Part shown: positions 9,412 to 18,138 of the stretch, one piece after another
Position numbering within the stretch: the stretch's first letter is position 1
How the letters are laid out: each line of letters begins with the position of its first letter
Source: a virus
Lineage: Duplodnaviria; Caudoviricetes
DNA: 64,000 nt
Reading direction: 5' to 3' (one strand)
IMG/VR virus record: IMGVR_UViG_3300021426_000063
Location: 32,001 to 96,000 of that record
Program-made: the position numbers and the translations under genes
The notes under the pieces: model-generated
Seen by the model: the letters and a program-made list of their open reading frames with translations, nothing else
What the model was told of the DNA's origin: nothing
Database searches by the model: none

Positions 9412-10131
9412 CTATTTTCCATATTTAACCCTGTTTGATACTATTTCACTCAACTTATGATTACCCTGTCTCATCATCTTATAATCTTCCATAATGCTTT
9501 TTTGTACAGTAACTGTATCCCAATGTTTATTGTACTTTATAACATCATGCTCTTTTATCTTAACAGAACCTCTTGAAAGTCTCATTTTTGATACAACTGA
9601 TGCTTTATCAAGATTGATGAAATAAATAATCATTATTTTATCTTCATTCATAAACTTTTCAAAGTCAGCACCTCGATGATTATAATAAGCATTATAACCA
9701 CCATATAATGGACTATAACTAACCTTAAACTCAACCTGTTCACCAGTTTCTCTATGAATCAAATCTAGTTCCCTGGTTGTTATATCTGTATCATACTTCA
9801 ATTTTTTATTTGTTGCCTTTGGATTTGGCATAAATTGAGGATTATCAATACAGAACAATGCTTCTTGTATATTACCAACAGCACAATCAAGTCTCACTTC
9901 TTCAGGTGTTCTCAATCCACTATCAGCAGCATAAAAGTCTCTTTTACCAATGTATTTTCCATCTTCACCTTTTATAAGTCCACCAGATTGAGTCAATATA
10001 TCATTAAACTCTGTGATCCCAGCACTATTAAGTCTATAATACACATCTGCATATGTGAGACCTTTCTTCTCCAATGCCTCTCCAAACTGAAGAGAATTTC
10101 TTGGAACATCAATATTACTTAATTTATCCAT
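9412..10131 (-). CDS. hypothetical protein, possible PD-(D/E)XK nuclease fold
   Basis: G.I.E...ELDL......VEFK resembles the D...ExK motif; weak. Confidence 0.45.
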   Translation of the reverse strand: MDKLSNIDVPRNSLQFGEALEKKGLTYADVYYRLNSAGITEFNDILTQSGGLIKGEDGKYIGKRDFYAADSGLRTPEEVRLDCAVGNIQEALFCIDNPQFMPNPKATNKKLKYDTDITTRELDLIHRETGEQVEFKVSYSPLYGGYNAYYNHRGADFEKFMNEDKIMIIYFINLDKASVVSKMRLSRGSVKIKEHDVIKYNKHWDTVTVQKSIMEDYKMMRQGNHKLSEIVSNRVKYGK

Positions 10132-10133
10132 AA

Positions 10134-10493
10134 TTATTCACTATCTGAATTATCATCTTCTTCATAAACCTCAACCACAGCCTTGTTTAAACCACAGAAG
10201 GTGGTCAAAGTGGTACACACATCCTTACTGGATGATATGACCATATGGGATCCTGGTTTTGGATTTGCCTGGCCATATCCCTGATGGTCAACTATATATC
10301 TTTCAGTTAATTTAATATCACCTTTTTTCACCATATAATCAATTGGGTCATCATATTCTTCAAGGACTGCTGTCATCAAAAATCTGTCTGGTCCATTCCA
10401 TGCTGCAAAATTACTTCGTCCACCTTTTGCATACCAGGCAACAATGGTTCTACAAGTTCCATCCTCACAGGTATTTATTGCTTTCTTTTTCAT
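10134..10493 (-). CDS. hypothetical protein
   Basis: Start reassigned to ATG 10493 (MKKKAINT), 1 nt after the upstream stop. Confidence 0.65.
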   Translation of the reverse strand: MKKKAINTCEDGTCRTIVAWYAKGGRSNFAAWNGPDRFLMTAVLEEYDDPIDYMVKKGDIKLTERYIVDHQGYGQANPKPGSHMVISSSKDVCTTLTTFCGLNKAVVEVYEEDDNSDSE

Positions 10494-10494
10494 A

Positions 10495-10896
10495 TCATTT
10501 ATTATACCAACAAACATATGTGAAATCTGGTCTGATAATCCCATCTACAAATGCTCTTGGACTGGCCTCTATATTAGACACTTCTTTGTCAGTTGCATAA
10601 TATCCAACACCATCAGAATCCATAATACCACCATATATACAATGGGATTTAAATTCATTAATGGTCATCAGACACTCCTTGTCCAAATCATCCATTGGTT
10701 TCATCTCTGGAGTTTCCTTCATAGACTTTGCTGCATAAAGAGCTTCATTGTCATCCCAATAAGGCTTACACTTCACTCTCCATCTCTCATATGAATTACC
10801 ATCATCAGTATCCCAGATTTCTTTCAATTTCTTGCTATTTTCCTCAATCCTGGATTCTATCTCTTCAAGAGTGAGGTTATTATAATTTCTTACCAT
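10495..10896 (-). CDS. hypothetical protein
   Basis: ORF overlapping the stop of the MTase alpha gene; ends VCWYNK. Confidence 0.7.
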   Translation of the reverse strand: MVRNYNNLTLEEIESRIEENSKKLKEIWDTDDGNSYERWRVKCKPYWDDNEALYAAKSMKETPEMKPMDDLDKECLMTINEFKSHCIYGGIMDSDGVGYYATDKEVSNIEASPRAFVDGIIRPDFTYVCWYNK

Positions 10897-11627
10897 AATT
10901 CTTCTTCTGGTTGTTCAACACTTTCATCTTTTGAATGTTCCACACTCATAGTCTGGATATACCTGTCAGTGACCTCCTGCTTCATATAATACTTTTCAGG
11001 TACATTATCCTCCAACAGGTCTTCAACTGTCTTTTTGAGTGGAATAGGTCTTGGGAACTCATAATAAGGTTCTGGTTCATCATCTGTCTTCAAGATAGAG
11101 ATCATGAAAATCCTCTCCCTGGACTGGGGAACACCATAATCCTTGGCATTGAGAACCTGATGGAAATTGGAATAACCATAAGATTCCAACTCCTTACACC
11201 ACTTCTCAAAGAGATACTTGAACTTATCTGTCACCAGGGCTTTCACATTCTCAAACATCAGATACTTTGGTTTCTTGGCAAGGATAGTCTTCCTACACTC
11301 CCAAAGAAGGGATGACCTGGTACCAGAACCCTCCTCACCACCAGCCTGCTGACCAGCATTCGAGAAATCGGTGCAAGGTGATGAATAAGTAAACAGGTCA
11401 AAATCAGGAACTTGTGACCAGTCAATCTTGGAGATGTCACCATAATTCCTGTCAGCATATTGGGGGAACAGAGCATTATGTGCCTTGATGGCTGCTGGGT
11501 CTATCTCTGACCAGCCTACCAAATCATAATCAATCCCCAGTCTGTTGAGTGCCAGACACTGGGAATCATAACCAGAGAATGCAGTGAACACTCTCAAAGG
11601 ATTTTCTTTTGTATATTTCTTTACCAT
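10890..11627 (-). CDS. C5 cytosine DNA methyltransferase, N-terminal catalytic half (motifs I-VIII only)
   Basis: FSGYDSQ (I), SEID (II), GDI (III), YSSPCTDFS (IV, catalytic Cys), FENV (VI), PQSRERIF (VIII); stops before the TRD and motifs IX-X. Confidence 0.9.
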   Translation of the reverse strand: MVKKYTKENPLRVFTAFSGYDSQCLALNRLGIDYDLVGWSEIDPAAIKAHNALFPQYADRNYGDISKIDWSQVPDFDLFTYSSPCTDFSNAGQQAGGEEGSGTRSSLLWECRKTILAKKPKYLMFENVKALVTDKFKYLFEKWCKELESYGYSNFHQVLNAKDYGVPQSRERIFMISILKTDDEPEPYYEFPRPIPLKKTVEDLLEDNVPEKYYMKQEVTDRYIQTMSVEHSKDESVEQPEEELW

Positions 11628-11631
11628 AAAC

Positions 11632-11874
11632 CTATTTATTATCAAGTTCTTGCTGCTTCTTTAACTTCTTTTCATCCAACCACTTTTGTATCCTCTCATT
11701 TAATTGTTCTCTTTCTGTCATTATTCTATAATATCCATCCTTTGTACATTTTTCTTTTGGACAATACTTATCATCTTTAAGAGAACAAACATCACATCCT
11801 TTTTCACCAAAACAATCCAATTCCCATTTATATCTAAATCTAAATTTATCTCCAATTATAAAAATATCATCCAT
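11632..11874 (-). CDS. small Cys-rich hypothetical protein
   Basis: CxxC...C...C pattern; coupled in operon. Confidence 0.6.
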   Translation of the reverse strand: MDDIFIIGDKFRFRYKWELDCFGEKGCDVCSLKDDKYCPKEKCTKDGYYRIMTEREQLNERIQKWLDEKKLKKQQELDNK

Positions 11875-11876
11875 AA

Positions 11877-12593
11877 CTATAACTTAATTTCATCTATTTT
11901 CTCAATCCATTCAGGTCTTATATTATCCATAGTAAAATATGAATCAAACCCTCTTGCATTTGGGTCTTTATAAAGTTTTATATTCTCAACTTTATTGAAA
12001 TCAATCCTGTAAACAGAGTATTCTTTAATCCTCTTTTTATTTAAAAGTGATTTATCAATTTCTTTTTTAAAAACTTGATTCATCATTTTATAGAAAATAG
12101 GTTCATATAATTTTATACATATCCTGTGCAAGAATTCTAAATCACCATTAGACAATAGATAAATTCTATCTGGATATTTGAATCTATAATTTCTACTTCT
12201 TGGTATCAAACCCATTGTCTGAATTTTCTTATCATTGATAGATGGTGTCAGATGATAAAAATATTGTATTTCACCAGATTGTTTTAATTTATCAAATATA
12301 TTTTCTTCATATATCTTCTCATATGTGTAATAATCATCAATATTTTCATCTGCTTGATAATATCCACCAAGTTTCAATACACTTTCAACATCATCAAACA
12401 AATTTTCATCTAATTTCTTACTCACAAGAATATATTCACCATCATCTATATATAATTCAACAGAATCATCATCAAGATTATACTTCTTTTGTATGTATCT
12501 TACAACCTTGTCTGCTGGATATGTCATCAGGAGACCCTCATTCAATGATGTCTCCTGAACAAACTCATCAAAATCCAATACATTCTTTACCAT
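11877..12593 (-). CDS. putative ADP-ribosyltransferase-fold protein with capsid-targeting-like N-terminus
   Basis: YFYHLTP...IQTMGLIPR...DRIYL...YRID...DP...YFT..NI.P resembles the Tpt1/ART NAD-binding lobe; N-terminus VLDFDEFVQETSLNEG. Confidence 0.55.
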   Translation of the reverse strand: MVKNVLDFDEFVQETSLNEGLLMTYPADKVVRYIQKKYNLDDDSVELYIDDGEYILVSKKLDENLFDDVESVLKLGGYYQADENIDDYYTYEKIYEENIFDKLKQSGEIQYFYHLTPSINDKKIQTMGLIPRSRNYRFKYPDRIYLLSNGDLEFLHRICIKLYEPIFYKMMNQVFKKEIDKSLLNKKRIKEYSVYRIDFNKVENIKLYKDPNARGFDSYFTMDNIRPEWIEKIDEIKL

Positions 12594-12811
12594 AACTGTA
12601 TATCTTTCTTTTTAGGTTCATTCCTGTTGATGAATAACTTGTCAAACATATGTACCATACAATCAACCACAATTGAGTTACCATACATTTTATAAAGTGC
12701 ATTGTCACTCAAATCACAGCTGAGCATAATATCAATATCCTTGTCATCAACTCCCATCAGTCTACCACACTCCCTTGGTGTCATCTTCCTGATTCTGTAG
12801 TACTTCTTCAT
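12587..12811 (-). CDS. C5-MTase C-terminal fragment beta-1 (motifs IX-X only, 74 aa)
   Basis: MKKYYRIRKMTPRECGRLMG (IX)...YGNSIVV (X); start at ATG 12811, immediately after a TTTGTTATATTTA motif. Confidence 0.85.
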   Translation of the reverse strand: MKKYYRIRKMTPRECGRLMGVDDKDIDIMLSCDLSDNALYKMYGNSIVVDCMVHMFDKLFINRNEPKKKDIQLW

Positions 12812-12828
12812 ACTATAAATATAACAAA

Positions 12829-13107
12829 TTATTTCCCTGAACATACAAGATAATACCTGTGGAGAAGACCATAAGGTACTTGTTTCCAAAGTACTTTCTC
12901 ATAAATCTTAATACTTGCATCAAGTGCTTCTTTTTCAGTTTCAAAAGAGACAAATCCTTCACCAGTGACAACTTCAATAAAAGTATCAACCTTGTAAGGG
13001 TATAATCTACACATATCACTCAACTTCTCTGGGAAGAAGTCAAGGTCTCGGAGTATCCATCTGTCTCCATACTTATTCACCAGTCTGGCAATAGTTTCTT
13101 TATTCAT
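12829..13107 (-). CDS. hypothetical protein
   Basis: Coupled ORF in operon. Confidence 0.65.
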   Translation of the reverse strand: MNKETIARLVNKYGDRWILRDLDFFPEKLSDMCRLYPYKVDTFIEVVTGEGFVSFETEKEALDASIKIYEKVLWKQVPYGLLHRYYLVCSGK

Positions 13108-13108
13108 A

Positions 13109-13315
13109 TTACTCTACATCAAAATCTAAATTATCAACATCAATATTATTATGATAAAGGACTTGTAAAAACTCATATATACCTGATGAGAAAGAATCCT
13201 TGACATCATCATATCTATATTCCTTATCCTTCCTCAAACTCACTCCAATGCTAAGTCCCCAGGAATAATTTTTCCACTTGTCTTCAATGAATTTGTTTAA
13301 TTTATCATTCTCCAT
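13109..13315 (-). CDS. hypothetical protein
   Basis: Coupled ORF in operon. Confidence 0.6.
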   Translation of the reverse strand: MENDKLNKFIEDKWKNYSWGLSIGVSLRKDKEYRYDDVKDSFSSGIYEFLQVLYHNNIDVDNLDFDVE

Positions 13316-13484
13316 AATTTTCCCAAGTTATTTTTAATTTTGATGGTTTATCCATAACAACAGGTGGATGTTGTTTCAGTACCTTTATGAGTTGATCAAC
13401 AGCATTGGATGCAGTCATCATCCAACAAGTAGTCTCTCTTCTCAACAACAAACATATTGTCTTCCTTTCTTCTTGTGTCAACAT
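13305..13484 (-). CDS. small hypothetical protein (59 aa)
   Basis: Manual ORF MLTQEERKTICLLLRRETTCW...WENYGE fills the gap between coupled genes. Confidence 0.55.
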   Translation of the reverse strand: MLTQEERKTICLLLRRETTCWMMTASNAVDQLIKVLKQHPPVVMDKPSKLKITWENYGE

Positions 13485-13486
13485 AT

Positions 13487-13831
13487 CTAAAACAATTTTA
13501 TTTCTTCTTTTGGTTTCCTTTCTTCATAAAAGAGTTCCCTGAATATCTCTGTCATCACATCAACAACAATGGAGTTTCCAAAGAGGGAATTGACCACACC
13601 TGGTGCAAGGACACCTGTCATCTTGTCAATATCAGAATCATCCACTCCCATCAGTCTCCCAATCTCCTTGGTTGTCATCTTCCTGATTCTTCCATTATCA
13701 AGTATTTTGAGATAACTGTTTGTGTTGTTATGCTGACCCACACAGATACAACGGCAGACCCCATCGGTGTACATCACTGTATCCTGCTGATGTGGACCAA
13801 CCTTGACTATGTGTATATCATTGTTTAGCAT
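13487..13831 (-). CDS. C5-MTase C-terminal fragment beta-2 (short TRD + motifs IX-X)
   Basis: HQQDTVMYTDGVCRCI...LKI (TRD-like), IRKMTTKEIGRLMG (IX), FGNSIVV (X). Confidence 0.85.
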   Translation of the reverse strand: MLNNDIHIVKVGPHQQDTVMYTDGVCRCICVGQHNNTNSYLKILDNGRIRKMTTKEIGRLMGVDDSDIDKMTGVLAPGVVNSLFGNSIVVDVMTEIFRELFYEERKPKEEIKLF

Positions 13832-14339
13832 CTACCAAACCTTTATCAACAAAACCCTTTACTATATTGTCTATCTTGTTCTGCCTGTGTTCATGAAGGT
13901 CAAGATTGTCACTTACAAACTTATAGGAAATAATATGTTCAAATCCAAGAGCCCTTATATATGCCAACTCCATATCAAACAGACAATCCTTTTCCTCTGT
14001 CTGTGTAACAAAGTCTGTACTTGTAAGACATTTCTTTATTTCAAGAGTTGTATCATTATCAATCCAACCAATAAAAGGGATATCCTGAAGTTTTTCATTA
14101 TATTCAACATTGGGATGATAAAGACCAACCTGACTTACAGCATAGAACTTACCTATTTCCAGGTCTTTACTTCCTGCATAACCAATATTTACAATCTCTG
14201 TATCTCTTGGAATATCCTTAAGGGCATCAATGACATTCATCGCCCCAACACCTGTAATAAGAACTGGTCTGTGTCCATAACCAAGTTTCTTGACCAGTTT
14301 CATTTCTTCTGCTTCTGCAATTACTACTAATTTCTTCAT
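13818..14339 (-). CDS. MTA/SAH nucleosidase-like protein (PNP_UDP_1 family)
   Basis: AEAEE, TGVGAMN, NIGYAG, TSTDFV, FDME, KFVSD motifs of the Pfs/MTAN fold. Confidence 0.7.
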   Translation of the reverse strand: MKKLVVIAEAEEMKLVKKLGYGHRPVLITGVGAMNVIDALKDIPRDTEIVNIGYAGSKDLEIGKFYAVSQVGLYHPNVEYNEKLQDIPFIGWIDNDTTLEIKKCLTSTDFVTQTEEKDCLFDMELAYIRALGFEHIISYKFVSDNLDLHEHRQNKIDNIVKGFVDKGLVDAKQ

Positions 14340-14348
14340 ACTTTTAAT

Positions 14349-14564
14349 CTATGTAATGTCAACAATTTCAAACTCATCCAAAAATGATTGTTTCTCCCGG
14401 GCAAAACAGTTGTACTCATTCTCATACAATGGTGCATATAAAATTGCATCAACCCAACCATTTGCTGAATCTTTTATTCTCATATTACATTCAACAATCT
14501 TATATTGTCTGTTGTACTTTACATGAACAACAACAAGTCCATTCTTCAATTCTTCTGATTTCAT
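14349..14564 (-). CDS. DUF1653-like SH3-fold protein
   Basis: HVK...YKIV...ILYAPLY....FARE...F pattern. Confidence 0.55.
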   Translation of the reverse strand: MKSEELKNGLVVVHVKYNRQYKIVECNMRIKDSANGWVDAILYAPLYENEYNCFAREKQSFLDEFEIVDIT

Positions 14565-14878
14565 AAATTATTTGTTTCAATGAATACTATATCTTTACTT
14601 TCAAACAAAATATCATTTATCTTTCCACACACACCATCTTCAACATTCTTCCTCTCTCCTTTAACAATCTTGAATATTGGATTGGCATCTATCCTGGACC
14701 AGGTAACATATTCTACCTCACATTCATTCTCTGTTCCTTTATTGAACACAATGGTCTTATCTTTTGGCCAAGTCTTCTGTATTTTTCTCAAAAAACCATA
14801 CCAAAATTCATCATCTGATTGTTTCCACATATCCATCAGATTGTTGCACTTACACTTAAAATATACTATATTATCCAT
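14561..14878 (-). CDS. hypothetical protein
   Basis: Coupled ORF in operon. Confidence 0.65.
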   Translation of the reverse strand: MDNIVYFKCKCNNLMDMWKQSDDEFWYGFLRKIQKTWPKDKTIVFNKGTENECEVEYVTWSRIDANPIFKIVKGERKNVEDGVCGKINDILFESKDIVFIETNNL

Positions 14879-14880
14879 AA

Positions 14881-15414
14881 TTAAAACAATGGTATTTCTG
14901 GATTCTTTCTTTCACTAAATAAATTTCTGAACATCTCTGTCATCACATTCACCACAATGGAATTGCCGGCAAGTTTCTTTCTGAATTTTGAAGGTACTGC
15001 ATCAATTATCTTCTGTGTATCTTCTGGATCCACATCCATCAGTCTGAATGCCTCCCTGTCAGTTAACTCTCTCACCTTGTAGTTCCTGTCCCAGACATAA
15101 TTGTCCATTGAGAAGGTGGTGAGAGTGTTGGAATATCCATCTCCCGTTGGTTCAGCATAGACCCCCTTTCCAAACTTCTTTCCTGCATCACCAAACCTGT
15201 GTCTCCTCAACTTCTCCTCTTCAGTTCTTTTCTGCTTCAATATCTGTGGTGGTTTCAATCCATCAGCAAAGAGATAAACATCATCACCAACCACCTTACA
15301 CATCATAGGAAGAGTAGTCCTGAGATACTTCCTTTTCTCCCAGTCCTTCTTTTTGAAATAGAGTTCTTCTGGAACATCTTTCTCAATTATCTCTTCCAGT
15401 GTGGTTTGCTTCAT
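14881..15414 (-). CDS. C5-MTase C-terminal fragment beta-3 (TRD + motifs IX-X)
   Basis: TLEEIIEKDVPEELY (post-VIII segment), SNTLTT (TRD TL motif), VRELTDREAFRLMDV (IX), LAGNSIVV (X). Confidence 0.85.
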   Translation of the reverse strand: MKQTTLEEIIEKDVPEELYFKKKDWEKRKYLRTTLPMMCKVVGDDVYLFADGLKPPQILKQKRTEEEKLRRHRFGDAGKKFGKGVYAEPTGDGYSNTLTTFSMDNYVWDRNYKVRELTDREAFRLMDVDPEDTQKIIDAVPSKFRKKLAGNSIVVNVMTEMFRNLFSERKNPEIPLF

Positions 15415-15673
15415 ATTCTTCTTTATCCATTAACATTCTCACAACATCTCTCCACCATTCATAATATTGCTTATTTTCATAACTCATATCATCCATATAA
15501 GTATTCCAAGCAATATAACACATATCCCTTGCTTCATCCAATTCTGTTTTGTCTTCTGTCAATAATCTGATATATTCTGCATATTCCTCCTTATTCAAAA
15601 ACAATGGAAAAAAGATTCTCTTATACCATTTAAGACCTTTCTTGAATGATATATATTCTAAATAGGTTGCCAT
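15383..15673 (-). CDS. hypothetical protein
   Basis: Overlaps both neighbours in operon. Confidence 0.6.
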   Translation of the reverse strand: MATYLEYISFKKGLKWYKRIFFPLFLNKEEYAEYIRLLTEDKTELDEARDMCYIAWNTYMDDMSYENKQYYEWWRDVVRMLMDKEEYEANHTGRDN

Positions 15674-18018
15674 ATCCTTTTCTTTAATTCATTACCAATT
15701 CGTTCAACAATTCCACACACAAGTGCATTACCCATCAGAAACCCTCTCTTTTTGTCAGTAGTACCCTCTGTATGATTATCTGGGAACATCTGTATCCTTT
15801 CCAGTTCAATGGGCACTAAACGCCTTAATTTGCCTGTTTCTGGGTCTTGTATAATATGTGTAAATCTGTTTGATACAATAGACACCTCACTTGTGATTAA
15901 TGTCCTTGCTGGTTTATCTAATGGGTCAGGAAATGCCATACTTCCCTCTGTGTACATATACTCATGTCCATCCTTACTGGTCCTGGGTATCTGCTTCGGA
16001 CCCTTGGCATACTTCCACTTCTCAACATCATCATTAGATAAATAATAATCTTCTGTAATATACTTCCTGTCATCTCCTTTCACCAGGATATCTCCAAGGG
16101 TTGTATATGGTCCAGAATAATCAGGAATGAGTTTATCTGTATATATAACCCCATCAATGACAACACCACCATTCTCAAATGGATTGGAAACAACATTACC
16201 CTTATTGAAGTTATCAGAGAGATAAACAAGGTCTGTATTCAATCTTCTTCCATCAAGACCCCACAATCCCTGATCTACATTGGGTTTGACAGGAAATGCC
16301 TTTGCCAATACACCATCTATATACAACCAGGAATCAGGAGAGGAAATCTTGAACTCACCTTTCAGAAATGCAAAGATGAATATTCTTCTTCTCTTCTGTG
16401 GCATACCATATTCAGCAGCATTGATAACCCTCCATTCAATGTTATATCCAAGGTTTATCAATGATTGGAGAATAAGTGCAAAATCCCTACCCCTTTGTTT
16501 GGATGGGGAGATAATCATCCTGTCCACATTCTCAAAAAGAAGGAACTTTGGTTTTTCCTTCATTTCAGAAAGAAGTCTGATGACCTGCCACCAGAGAACA
16601 CCTTTCTTTCCCTCAATACCAAGGGATTTGGTTTTATTCCTGGCAACACTATAATCCTGACAATTATGTGTTATACAATGATTTGCAATAAATGAATGAC
16701 TTTCATCTACTTCAATATCATACACAGGTTGTTCAATATATTCTTCAATCTTTGAAATTGGATACCAAATATATCCATCCTCATAGAAATATGTTGAATG
16801 AACAGGTTCAGAAAATCTATATTTTAATTGATAAAAATTATTCTGATTTACAAGTCTACCTTCTATTATCTTTTCTTCTGGAACTTTACATAATGACAAC
16901 ATTGTTGGTTTATGATATACCTTCTCAACACAATGTGCAATGCCATATAAAAGTTCCTTACTAACAGATGTAAACTGGTTATATATTCCTGTTACACATC
17001 CATCACTATCTTGATATCCTTTTAGTAACTGTTCAAGAAGATTTATAGGTAAATCAAATACAAATCCTGGTAATCTCTTTGTTCTTGCAGAATGTTCTTC
17101 TCCTGAATAAAATTGTTCACAGAAATGAGCAAGTTCTATATCACTAAATATAAAATTATATGTTGTTGTATTTTCAGCAATAGTATAATGATATTTATCT
17201 GATATTTTTGATGCAAATTCATCAATTTCATCTTTACCACAACAAATACCAATACCATTATATTTGTATCTGTGTTCACCTTTCTTCTGTTGCTTTCTCA
17301 ACCAACCATCTCCAAGAAATCTGCCAACAATATACCATAAATTTTCATCAGTCATATCCAAGTTACAATGTGTTTCCGAAACAAACTGATTTTTATTTAT
17401 GGTTAATCCTCTCCATTCTGGAATAATACTGTTTTGATTGATTGCAGATCCCATATAGTAATCCTTATAACAATCTTTCAGGTCATCAACAGATTTCCAT
17501 TCTGGTTGTGAGAATGATTTTATATATACAGGTTTTCCTTTTAATCTTGTACTTCTTTGTATCTTTTCCCGTACAAGAAATCTATGGTTTCCTGTTGCCT
17601 CAATAGTATCAAATCCACTTGCCTTAATCTTATAAGTTTGTTTGATACCTTGATTCATAAATTTATTGACTCTATGATACTGGTTATCATGTCCAAGTAC
17701 CATATCACCCTCTTTAACATCTGTGATATACTTATATCCATCAGATGTCAACACAAAGGTATTCCCAGACAAGCAAGGAAATCCACCAACCATAAGATCA
17801 GCTTCCAAATCCTTACCAGAAACCTTGCAAATATCATCATTTATCAATAAGTCATTTGGAAATCTCTTCCTGTATATATTGGCAGCAAACTGGTCTTTGG
17901 TACCAGGTTCCCACTGGTTGGCCAAAACACACTTATAGAATCCATTGCCTGCTCTGTCAAAGCCAACATGGAATCCACCAACACCAGCAAATAATTCTAT
18001 GTATCTACACTCTTTCAT
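15658..18018 (-). CDS. dcm: C5 cytosine DNA methyltransferase (M.Sau3AI-like), intein-containing
   Basis: ELFAGVGGF, ANQWEP, GGFP|CQDYSVAR, GKKGVLW, ENVDR...SP..QRGRDF, QKRRRIF, GNAL; very similar to recalled M.Sau3AI motifs. Confidence 0.9.
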   Translation of the reverse strand: MKECRYIELFAGVGGFHVGFDRAGNGFYKCVLANQWEPGTKDQFAANIYRKRFPNDLLINDDICKVSGKDLEADLMVGGFPCLSGNTFVLTSDGYKYITDVKEGDMVLGHDNQYHRVNKFMNQGIKQTYKIKASGFDTIEATGNHRFLVREKIQRSTRLKGKPVYIKSFSQPEWKSVDDLKDCYKDYYMGSAINQNSIIPEWRGLTINKNQFVSETHCNLDMTDENLWYIVGRFLGDGWLRKQQKKGEHRYKYNGIGICCGKDEIDEFASKISDKYHYTIAENTTTYNFIFSDIELAHFCEQFYSGEEHSARTKRLPGFVFDLPINLLEQLLKGYQDSDGCVTGIYNQFTSVSKELLYGIAHCVEKVYHKPTMLSLCKVPEEKIIEGRLVNQNNFYQLKYRFSEPVHSTYFYEDGYIWYPISKIEEYIEQPVYDIEVDESHSFIANHCITHNCQDYSVARNKTKSLGIEGKKGVLWWQVIRLLSEMKEKPKFLLFENVDRMIISPSKQRGRDFALILQSLINLGYNIEWRVINAAEYGMPQKRRRIFIFAFLKGEFKISSPDSWLYIDGVLAKAFPVKPNVDQGLWGLDGRRLNTDLVYLSDNFNKGNVVSNPFENGGVVIDGVIYTDKLIPDYSGPYTTLGDILVKGDDRKYITEDYYLSNDDVEKWKYAKGPKQIPRTSKDGHEYMYTEGSMAFPDPLDKPARTLITSEVSIVSNRFTHIIQDPETGKLRRLVPIELERIQMFPDNHTEGTTDKKRGFLMGNALVCGIVERIGNELKKRIWQPI
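16663..17775 (-). mobile_element. intein with LAGLIDADG homing endonuclease (371 aa)
   Basis: Begins CLSGNT, block B ATGNHRF, LAGLIDADG motifs VGRFLGDG and LKGYQDSDG, ends VYDIEV...ITHN before extein Cys (CQDYS). Confidence 0.93.
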
Positions 18019-18138
18019 AATTAACACCTTAAATATAACAAAAATAATTTATGGCCCATTTGTATATTATTAAAAAAATAAAGAACATAAAACAATTTAT
18101 TTGTTATTTTTATTTCATAACCATTTTATTCATGCCAT

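Follow-up and report, generated by a model that had tools for sequence, protein, structure and literature searches.

A candidate modular cytosine-5 methyltransferase of separate catalytic, C-terminal and target-recognition genes in a ruminant-gut jumbo phage

Split, permuted and multispecific methyltransferases and the phage locus

To our knowledge, cytosine-5 DNA methyltransferases (C5-MTases), two two-polypeptide exceptions aside, are treated as single chains whose specificity is set by a target recognition domain (TRD) in cis. Their folding and activity require the conserved motifs IX and X, and the multispecific enzymes of Bacillus phages (SPR, phi3T, rho11s and H2) carry several TRDs in cis on one polypeptide. 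M.AquI consists of two polypeptides, alpha with motifs I-VIII and beta with the distal variable region and motifs IX-X, the cut lying in the variable region (PMC3404938). M.EcoHK31I also works as two polypeptides, with motifs I-VIII, motif X and the TRD on alpha and motif IX supplied by a small beta (PMC3404938). A circular permutation, 'type H', is known from M.BssHII and about 27 REBASE entries (PMC5944983). Two-polypeptide C5-MTases, circular permutation and multispecific phage enzymes with TRD arrays in cis are thus already known. Here we analysed a 64,000-nucleotide stretch of viral DNA (the window; G000:C1:32001-96000 of the 233-kb IMG/VR record IMGVR_UViG_3300021426_000063, GC about 35%), which encodes a catalytic C5-MTase half (alpha), three C-terminal halves (beta1, beta2 and beta3) and a stand-alone protein of TRD modules (the TRD protein) as separate genes. 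We consider it fairly probable that these genes form a multi-subunit modular C5-MTase system, in which alpha works with a coupled beta1 and TRD protein and the TRD-bearing beta2 and beta3 serve as alternatives. In the searchable literature, with subscription-only papers lying outside the search, we met neither TRD proteins acting in trans nor C5-MTases with several betas. Three features are undescribed there: an IX-X subunit that has no TRD, separate genes for TRD-only proteins, and a surplus of alternative C-terminal over catalytic subunits that is kept under selection across a phage clade. The 'two-subunit methyltransferase' of a Stx phage was considered as a precedent and rejected, being an MT-A70 enzyme and irrelevant here.

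The host of the MTase parts is a ruminant-gut jumbo myovirus. The window also codes for a major head protein, a prohead protease, a tail sheath and a UvsX-like recombinase, which identify it as a jumbo myovirus. Gut metagenome runs contain near-identical DNA and, besides the likely source sample, goat-gut runs of a second study contain relatives at 90-99% identity. Every gene of the MTase region lies on the minus strand. The parts, with lengths in amino acids (aa), open reading frames (ORFs) and matches to Pfam PF00145, are:

10890..11627, minus strand: alpha, catalytic C5-MTase half with motifs I-VIII and a tail ending ...EELW
12587..12811, minus strand: beta1, 74 aa, only motifs IX-X; PF00145 positions 270-322, 33 bits (ORF 12587-12889)
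13487..13831, minus strand: beta2, 114 aa, one short TRD module and motifs IX-X; PF00145 positions 269-322, 27 bits
14881..15414, minus strand: beta3, 177 aa, hinge segment, long TRD (TL motif SNTLTT) and motifs IX-X; PF00145 positions 188-323, 22.9 bits
10134..10493, minus strand: TRD protein, 119 aa, two TRD modules and no catalytic motif; conserved start at 10493, ORF open back to 10544

We found that alpha (10890-11645, with an alternative TTG start at 11645) matched PF00145 over profile positions 6-225 with an E value of 1e-52 and carried the SSPC catalytic motif with the Cys of PC, ENV and QSRER (QxRxR), which places it among the C5-MTases by motifs I-VIII. This agrees with a first-pass annotation of the same DNA, which had described a half encoding motifs I-VIII, including the catalytic PC, that then stops. 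Alpha ends about 70 residues past motif VIII and the other parts lie in separate ORFs, so the order I-VIII, TRD, IX-X of a single polypeptide was not found. Since motifs IX and X are required for a folded, active C5-MTase, alpha needs a partner. It would give the domain that binds S-adenosylmethionine and catalyses the reaction (motifs I-VIII), and would be inactive alone, as it lacks both motif IX, around which the small domain is built, and the helix of motif X, which packs on the large domain.

Beta1, beta2 and beta3 all exceeded the curated PF00145 cut-off of 22 bits at profile positions of about 269-323, and the columns of motif IX (R..T..E) and motif X (GNS/A.V) were invariant in the family alignments. 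The earlier description of three intact IX-X ORFs with no, a short and a long TRD, placed upstream of alpha in transcription order and interleaved with unrelated genes, was therefore borne out; the interleaved ORFs have no Pfam match. Beta1 starts at a conserved ATG, at position 12811. The IX-X segments of the betas shared 40-54% identity with one another and 33-53% with full-length enzymes from alpha's subfamily, but only 19-25% with the neighbouring full-length MTase, indicating that the betas belong to alpha's subfamily and not to that of the neighbour. Stand-alone beta1-like IX-X proteins formed 341 clusters, with many of 71-74 aa among the matches listed. The relatives of beta3 formed about 50 clusters, every one 175-179 aa long at 54-90% identity, and were conserved in the hinge segment at the N-terminus, in the TRD and in the tail. 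The AlphaFold2 model of beta3 had a predicted local distance difference test score (pLDDT) of 81, and its top structural matches in a wide VIA search were the C-terminal parts of C5-MTases, with weak Z scores of 5.2-5.5; Foldseek of this model against the PDB gave nothing at E <= 0.001. As the first-pass annotation had pointed out, the start segment of beta3, TLEEIIEKDVPEELY, duplicates alpha's end segment, TVEDLLEDNVPEKYY.

The locus resembles M.AquI in encoding the catalytic half apart from the TRD/IX-X half. It differs in having one alpha and three upstream, interleaved betas, one of which lacks a TRD and has its TRDs on a third protein. One alpha followed by one adjoining beta, as in M.AquI, was not found in the cluster. 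That layout is matched exactly by a second split pair of the same phage, alpha2 and beta4, and by pairs in Streptococcus Javan phages. In the latter, which are temperate, an adjoining alpha (264 aa) and beta (128 aa) of the same subfamily occur in phage Javan179 (L003:2498-3776) and in other Javan phages, and each half is annotated as a different methyltransferase gene. The likeness to M.EcoHK31I lies in a very small polypeptide with a C-terminal motif, which by the example of M.EcoHK31I can be an obligatory subunit; in M.EcoHK31I, however, the TRD is on the large subunit and there is one specificity. With the Bacillus phage MTases the locus shares several short TRD modules per catalytic core (two in the TRD protein, about six in a related protein, P0087) and a phage anti-restriction setting. 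The difference is that the TRDs of those enzymes are in cis, whereas here they are on beta2, beta3 and the two-module protein, and a tandem array between motifs VIII and IX was not found.

Conservation, selection and coupling of the parts

An IMG/VR scan with alpha as the query gave 14 loci, and megablast of 10000-18100 against GenBank phages gave no match. The order full-length MTase, beta3, beta2, beta1, alpha was kept in L006 (345 kb), L007 (412 kb), L008/L018 (248 kb) and L015, and L024-L026 carry a compact operon of full-length MTase, beta3, beta2, beta1, alpha and TRD protein. Amino acid identities to the window in L006, L007, L008/L018 and L015 were 82-88% for alpha, with 83-88% in L006-L008, and 61-80% for beta1; beta2 was 74-92% identical in five relatives, and beta3 74-92% in relatives. 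The ratio of nonsynonymous to synonymous substitution rates (dN/dS; Nei-Gojobori) was 0.09-0.13 for alpha, 0.08-0.32 for beta1, 0.06-0.20 for beta2, 0.04-0.10 for beta3 and 0.07-0.16 for the TRD protein, with dS from 0.5 to more than 2, that is, near saturation. An unrelated neighbouring gene, taken for comparison, gave 0.14-0.28.

These data bear directly on whether the pieces are decaying remnants of whole MTase genes. Broken MTase genes are frequent in phage genomes, and frame breaks occur within the TRD arrays of L011 and L017, by decay or sequencing errors, yet we regard pseudogene debris as highly improbable. All five parts were intact ORFs in every related contig examined, their lengths are fixed over dozens of clusters and the stop/start overlaps between them are conserved. 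Moreover, a dN/dS near 1 had been proposed as the sign of decayed fragments, and the overall range of 0.04-0.32 at near-saturated dS instead indicates that the parts are under selection. The first-pass annotation had proposed to check whether related phages keep one alpha with variable beta sets under purifying selection. In the relatives alpha is indeed kept with a variable set of betas: beta3, beta2 and beta1 in the clade of the window, beta3 and beta1 in L042, and one more beta, of 131 aa and with another TRD, in L027 and L031. Beta2 is intact in the L027-L035 clade too, and beta3 is kept in L032, L034 and L035, which are without the neighbouring full-length MTase.

We found that the stop of beta1 overlaps the start of alpha (ATGGTAA) in L006, L008, L015 and L042, where TTATGGTAA is read as Leu-Trp-stop over Met-Val. 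Likewise, in L007, L008, L024-L028, L030 and L042 the start of the TRD protein lies over alpha's stop. In addition, two fused ORFs were identified, one in the order TRD-IX-X-I..VIII (L013:9680-10678) and one in the order IX-X-I..VIII (L019:9815-10678). Given these overlaps and fused forms, beta1, alpha and the TRD protein form a coupled three-gene unit, a circularly permuted MTase cut in three. Beta1 followed by alpha corresponds to the IX-X before I-VIII of the permuted C5-MTases M.BssHII, M.Alw26I, M2.Eco31I, M.Esp3I and M2.BsaI, and L013 has the fused form. The known permuted enzymes, however, are single chains with an N-terminal TRD, whereas here the chain is divided over two or three genes, with the gene of the TRD protein following motif VIII. 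A type H single chain was not found in the window, where beta1 and alpha are separate; fusion was seen only in L013 and L019.

In the window itself, cassettes and other ORFs lie between the parts:

10495..10896, minus strand: cassette between alpha and the TRD protein, which takes over the overlapping MV(R) start
11632..12593, minus strand: two-gene insertion between beta1 and alpha (11877-12593 and 11632-11874), absent from L006 and L008, where beta1 and alpha overlap
12829..13484, minus strand: three small ORFs between beta2 and beta1, not MTase-like, without Pfam match; presence differs among L006, L007 and L008
13818..14878, minus strand: three ORFs between beta3 and beta2, not MTase-like, without Pfam match; absent from the compact L024-L026 operon

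The cassette at 10495-10896 is present in the window and L006; L007 and L008 are without it and have the TRD protein directly next to alpha. The 11632-12593 insertion has the junction TTATGGTAAAGAA on either side. Both window insertions start with the same MV(K/R) and share a flanking junction word, and a homologue of 11877-12593 occurs elsewhere in L028. This junction word, TTATGGTAA(A/G)(G)AA, reads Leu-Trp-stop over Met-Val-Lys/Arg and recurs at the borders of parts and cassettes, at 12587-12593, 11627-11632 and 10890-10896 and likewise in L006-L008. This recurrence suggests that cassettes are gained and lost by recombination at the microhomology of the junction word.

The same arrangement speaks to whether trans-splicing, split inteins, or frameshifting or hopping of ribosomes could join the parts into a single chain. 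Inteins are indeed active in this gene family, in the neighbouring MTase, alpha and alpha2, but they are contiguous insertions at the PC motif and not at the split sites. Furthermore, each part begins at a start codon of its own and has a conserved C-terminal tail, all three kinds of stop codon occur after alpha, which leaves no room for recoding, and the betas precede alpha with variable, unrelated genes between them. This order and the variable intervening genes exclude read-through and uphold the earlier argument that splicing or frameshifting cannot rebuild one gene, so that we find rejoining scarcely credible.

Excess of TRD-bearing parts over alphas and the candidate assembly

Outside the window, about 37 kb away, we identified the second split pair, alpha2 and beta4 (G000:C1:4260-5802); over the genomes searched this distance is about 37-41 kb. 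Alpha2 is 239-242 aa long and 61% identical to alpha, and beta4 is a 155-aa protein of TRD and motifs IX-X. The two abut in the related genomes G001 and G002, with an intein in the alpha2 of G002, and a 121-aa ORF lies between them in G000. For this reason G000:C1:4266-5771, considered as a second full-length MTase, was rejected, being alpha2, the inserted ORF and beta4. Searches of whole records with PF00145, covering G000 and the 94%-complete G001 and G002, gave one full-length MTase, two alphas and four betas, and nothing further. As there are two alphas and four betas and beta4 is paired with alpha2, beta2 and beta3 are without a private alpha. The first-pass annotation had held that further alpha halves pairing one-to-one with each beta would speak against shared use of alpha. 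An additional alpha does exist, but it has its own beta4, and no private alpha for beta2 or beta3 was found in the two 94%-complete relatives. From the excess of TRD-bearing parts over alphas we infer that one catalytic core may serve several unrelated targets.

An alternative is that the cluster makes a single enzyme, of beta1, alpha and the TRD protein, and that beta2 and beta3 are kept for another role, as sequence-specific DNA binders or regulators, as partners of alpha2 only, or as decoys that interfere with host C5-MTases. It draws on the facts that only beta1, alpha and the TRD protein are coupled, that beta2 and beta3 lie farther off with unrelated genes between in most genomes, that the hinge segment of beta3 is redundant with alpha's tail and that a second alpha is present. 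However, strong selection maintains in beta2 and beta3 both the X-helix pattern of alpha's subfamily and the invariant residues R..T..E of motif IX and GNSIVV of motif X, residues that pack on the catalytic domain and do not bind DNA. The betas are also always in alpha's operon, and alpha2 already has an abutting beta4. We therefore judge the single-enzyme explanation rather unlikely and prefer the modular system with beta2 and beta3 as alternatives to the coupled unit.

The TRD protein belongs to a family of 73 clusters. Its module 1 reads INT..DG.CRTI...Y.KGG...TAVLEEY and its module 2 GYG...GSH.V....CTTLTT.....VVEVYE, and both carry a T-[IL] 'TL motif' and end in a hydrophobic strand with acidic residues after it. 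In ordinary C5-MTases that strand leads straight into the RIRK..T..E of motif IX, as seen in the full-length relatives L009 and L012. An exhaustive search of 1.8 billion representatives with the profile of the TRD family identified single-module ORFs of 52-65 aa and P0087 (E 1.5e-6, four stretches). This beta-type protein, 415 aa long, has about six TRD modules in a row directly before motifs IX-X and is without motifs I-VIII. An alpha ORF upstream of P0087 ends over the start of P0087, and the matched part aligns with the TRD and motif IX of annotated phage C5-MTases. Through P0087, which is the chief formal link, both modules are homologous to TRDs sited directly before motif IX.

The modules are also arranged differently among relatives. 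They are separate ORFs at different places in L015, a third, single-module ORF follows the two-module TRD protein in L030, and the protein after alpha in L042 holds module 2 only. In L011, L013, L016 and L019, runs of small TRD-like ORFs in alternating frames follow alpha or the fused enzyme. A separate two-TRD protein that would direct a methylase core recalls the logic of HsdS in Type I restriction-modification systems. The likeness is an analogy only, as HsdS has no sequence relationship to the TRD protein (no Pfam match), N6-adenine chemistry and another architecture.

The AlphaFold2 model of the TRD protein alone was unusable (pLDDT 54.7). A complex of three chains, alpha, beta1 and the TRD protein, was modelled with a separate alignment for each chain, and the score was taken for the TRD protein as partner. 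The model reached an interface score (ipSAE) of 0.67, against 0.10 for the best of three controls. The mark is one that 58 of 80 solved complexes attain, as do 2 of 110 mismatched pairs, and these counts are only rough for this case of own alignments and three chains. The pLDDT of the partner was at least 58, and the runs agreed in at least 0% of contacts. In the best run, residues 105-111 of the TRD protein (VVEVYEE) ran antiparallel to residues 3-9 of beta1 (KYYRIRK), T95 in the TL motif of the TRD protein lay beside S169 in the QSRER of alpha, and residues 197-227 of alpha were also in contact. Module 2 may thus sit at the canonical TRD position with the geometry expected of intact enzymes.

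These features suggest how the system could work. The final strand of a TRD module would pair with the RIRK strand of motif IX, the first in beta1, rebuilding the hairpin that is continuous in ordinary enzymes, and the TL motif would then adjoin motif VIII of alpha. Each of the two self-contained modules of the TRD protein would confer one target sequence. Beta2 and beta3, with their own TRDs fused to motifs IX-X, would compete for alpha or for the 61%-identical alpha2 and add further specificities. The benefit would be phage DNA shielded from several host restriction systems, with specificity turned over cheaply by gain, loss and exchange of 50-180-aa cassettes at conserved stop/start junctions. 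More tentatively, free-standing TRD modules of 50-60 aa, as single ORFs or two-module proteins, may plug in trans into a TRD-less alpha and beta1, in competition with the TRD-bearing betas, as an HsdS-like m5C specificity-subunit system that evolves by exchange of cassettes at junctions, and the L-F/W tails of the subunits may tether them to the replisome.

The first-pass annotation had proposed a combinatorial MTase with exchangeable betas. In that proposal the parts proved to be real, conserved and selected and the betas outnumber the alphas, but the part given to beta1 needs amending: far from being an alternative that lacks a TRD, it provides motifs IX-X to the coupled unit, whose TRDs come from a separate protein.

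Integrity, selection, synteny, coupling and homology of the parts are observed; their assembly, methylation and multispecificity are what we infer. Several points weigh against the modular system. Alpha2 and beta4 are an ordinary one-to-one pair, so beta2 and beta3 might have other partners or roles. Outside P0087 the likeness of the TRD protein to cis TRDs is weak (local profile search, E 0.0025-0.045 among 8587 ORFs), and the TRD protein gave no meaningful match to Pfam and PDB sequences and none in tblastn against phages. The three runs of the complex model need not share contacts, module 1 was not placed, and the pass of the model may reflect memory of, or likeness to, solved intact C5-MTases. 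The source record of the window is 62% complete by CheckV estimate. Beta3 repeats a segment of alpha, so that one copy must be displaced in a complex; this last objection is removed by M.SssI, whose fragments function both overlapping and non-overlapping.

If the modular system holds, one catalytic subunit served by alternative C-terminal subunits and TRD-only proteins would be new for C5-MTases and would explain cheap diversification of anti-restriction methylation in large phages. It would also offer natural, pre-optimised split points and trans recognition modules for engineering targetable cytosine methylases, which have so far been sought with artificial fragments of M.SssI and M.HhaI (PMC3404938, PMC5944983). 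The families of the parts comprise tens to hundreds of clusters in gut metagenomes, and almost none of them is named or functionally annotated in the source databases.

Neighbouring genes, inteins, genome composition and tails

Upstream of beta3 lies the full-length MTase:

15658..18027, minus strand: full-length C5-MTase of another subfamily, 789 aa; PF00145, Intein_splicing and LAGLIDADG_3

A LAGLIDADG intein interrupts the PC motif of this enzyme, and the orthologues in L006-L008 are without an intein. Inteins were also found in the alpha of L015, L024-L028, L030 and L042 and in the alpha2 of L022. The insertion site, the Pro-Cys catalytic motif with the catalytic Cys as the +1 residue, is identical in three paralogous genes (the full-length MTase, alpha and alpha2), and the inteins at this site vary in presence by genome and range from mini-inteins to LAGLIDADG-bearing forms (window 15658-18027; L015:8666-10477; L022:28-1872; L024:2205-4007; L027:2856-4007; L042:10771-12420). 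Metatranscriptome contigs from two studies cover parts of alpha and the TRD protein; they may be DNA carry-over, and the missing cover of the betas is uninformative. A related phage contig has, some 7 kb downstream of its MTase operon, a Cas12f1-like TnpB gene and an adjoining resolvase/MerR gene (L031:17508-19753).

The genome is extremely depleted of CpG, with an observed/expected ratio (O/E) of 0.09 and a TpG/CpA value of 1.39 over 233 kb of G000. The CpG O/E was 0.07-0.27 in the close relatives L006-L008, L015, L024-L026 and L030 and 0.55 in L042 and L043; the sister clade L027-L035, with the same MTase operon and GC content, was near 1.0. The depletion resembles 5mC deamination at CG sites, and no MTase part could be tied to it. 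Beta2 was considered as its cause and rejected, as beta2 is intact in the CpG-normal sister clade too, and the end of the beta4 TRD aligns weakly with the CpG-specific M.MpeI (E 0.012). By Markov O/E, the sites avoided in G000 were CATG (0.22), CTAG (0.29), GATC (0.30), AGCT (0.44), CTGCAG (0.04) and GTGCAC (0.11), and the classic C5-MTase targets GGCC (0.94), CCGG (1.39), GCGC (1.14), CCWGG (1.09) and GCWGC (1.45) were not avoided.

C-termini of the L-F/W type were found in only 11 of the 204 G000 ORFs of at least 80 aa. These include alpha, beta1, beta2 and beta3, a B-family DNA polymerase and an N6/N4 DNA MTase; alpha2, beta4 and the full-length C5-MTase are without such a tail. The tail loci are at window 10890, 12587, 13487 and 14881, G000:C1:110123-113053, G000:C1:162222-162977, L031:5039-5818 and L042:9050-9910. 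By its sequence, this tail is compatible with a sliding-clamp docking tail. N6/N4 MTases adjoining beta3 in relatives share the tail type (..SQLW, ..EVPLF).

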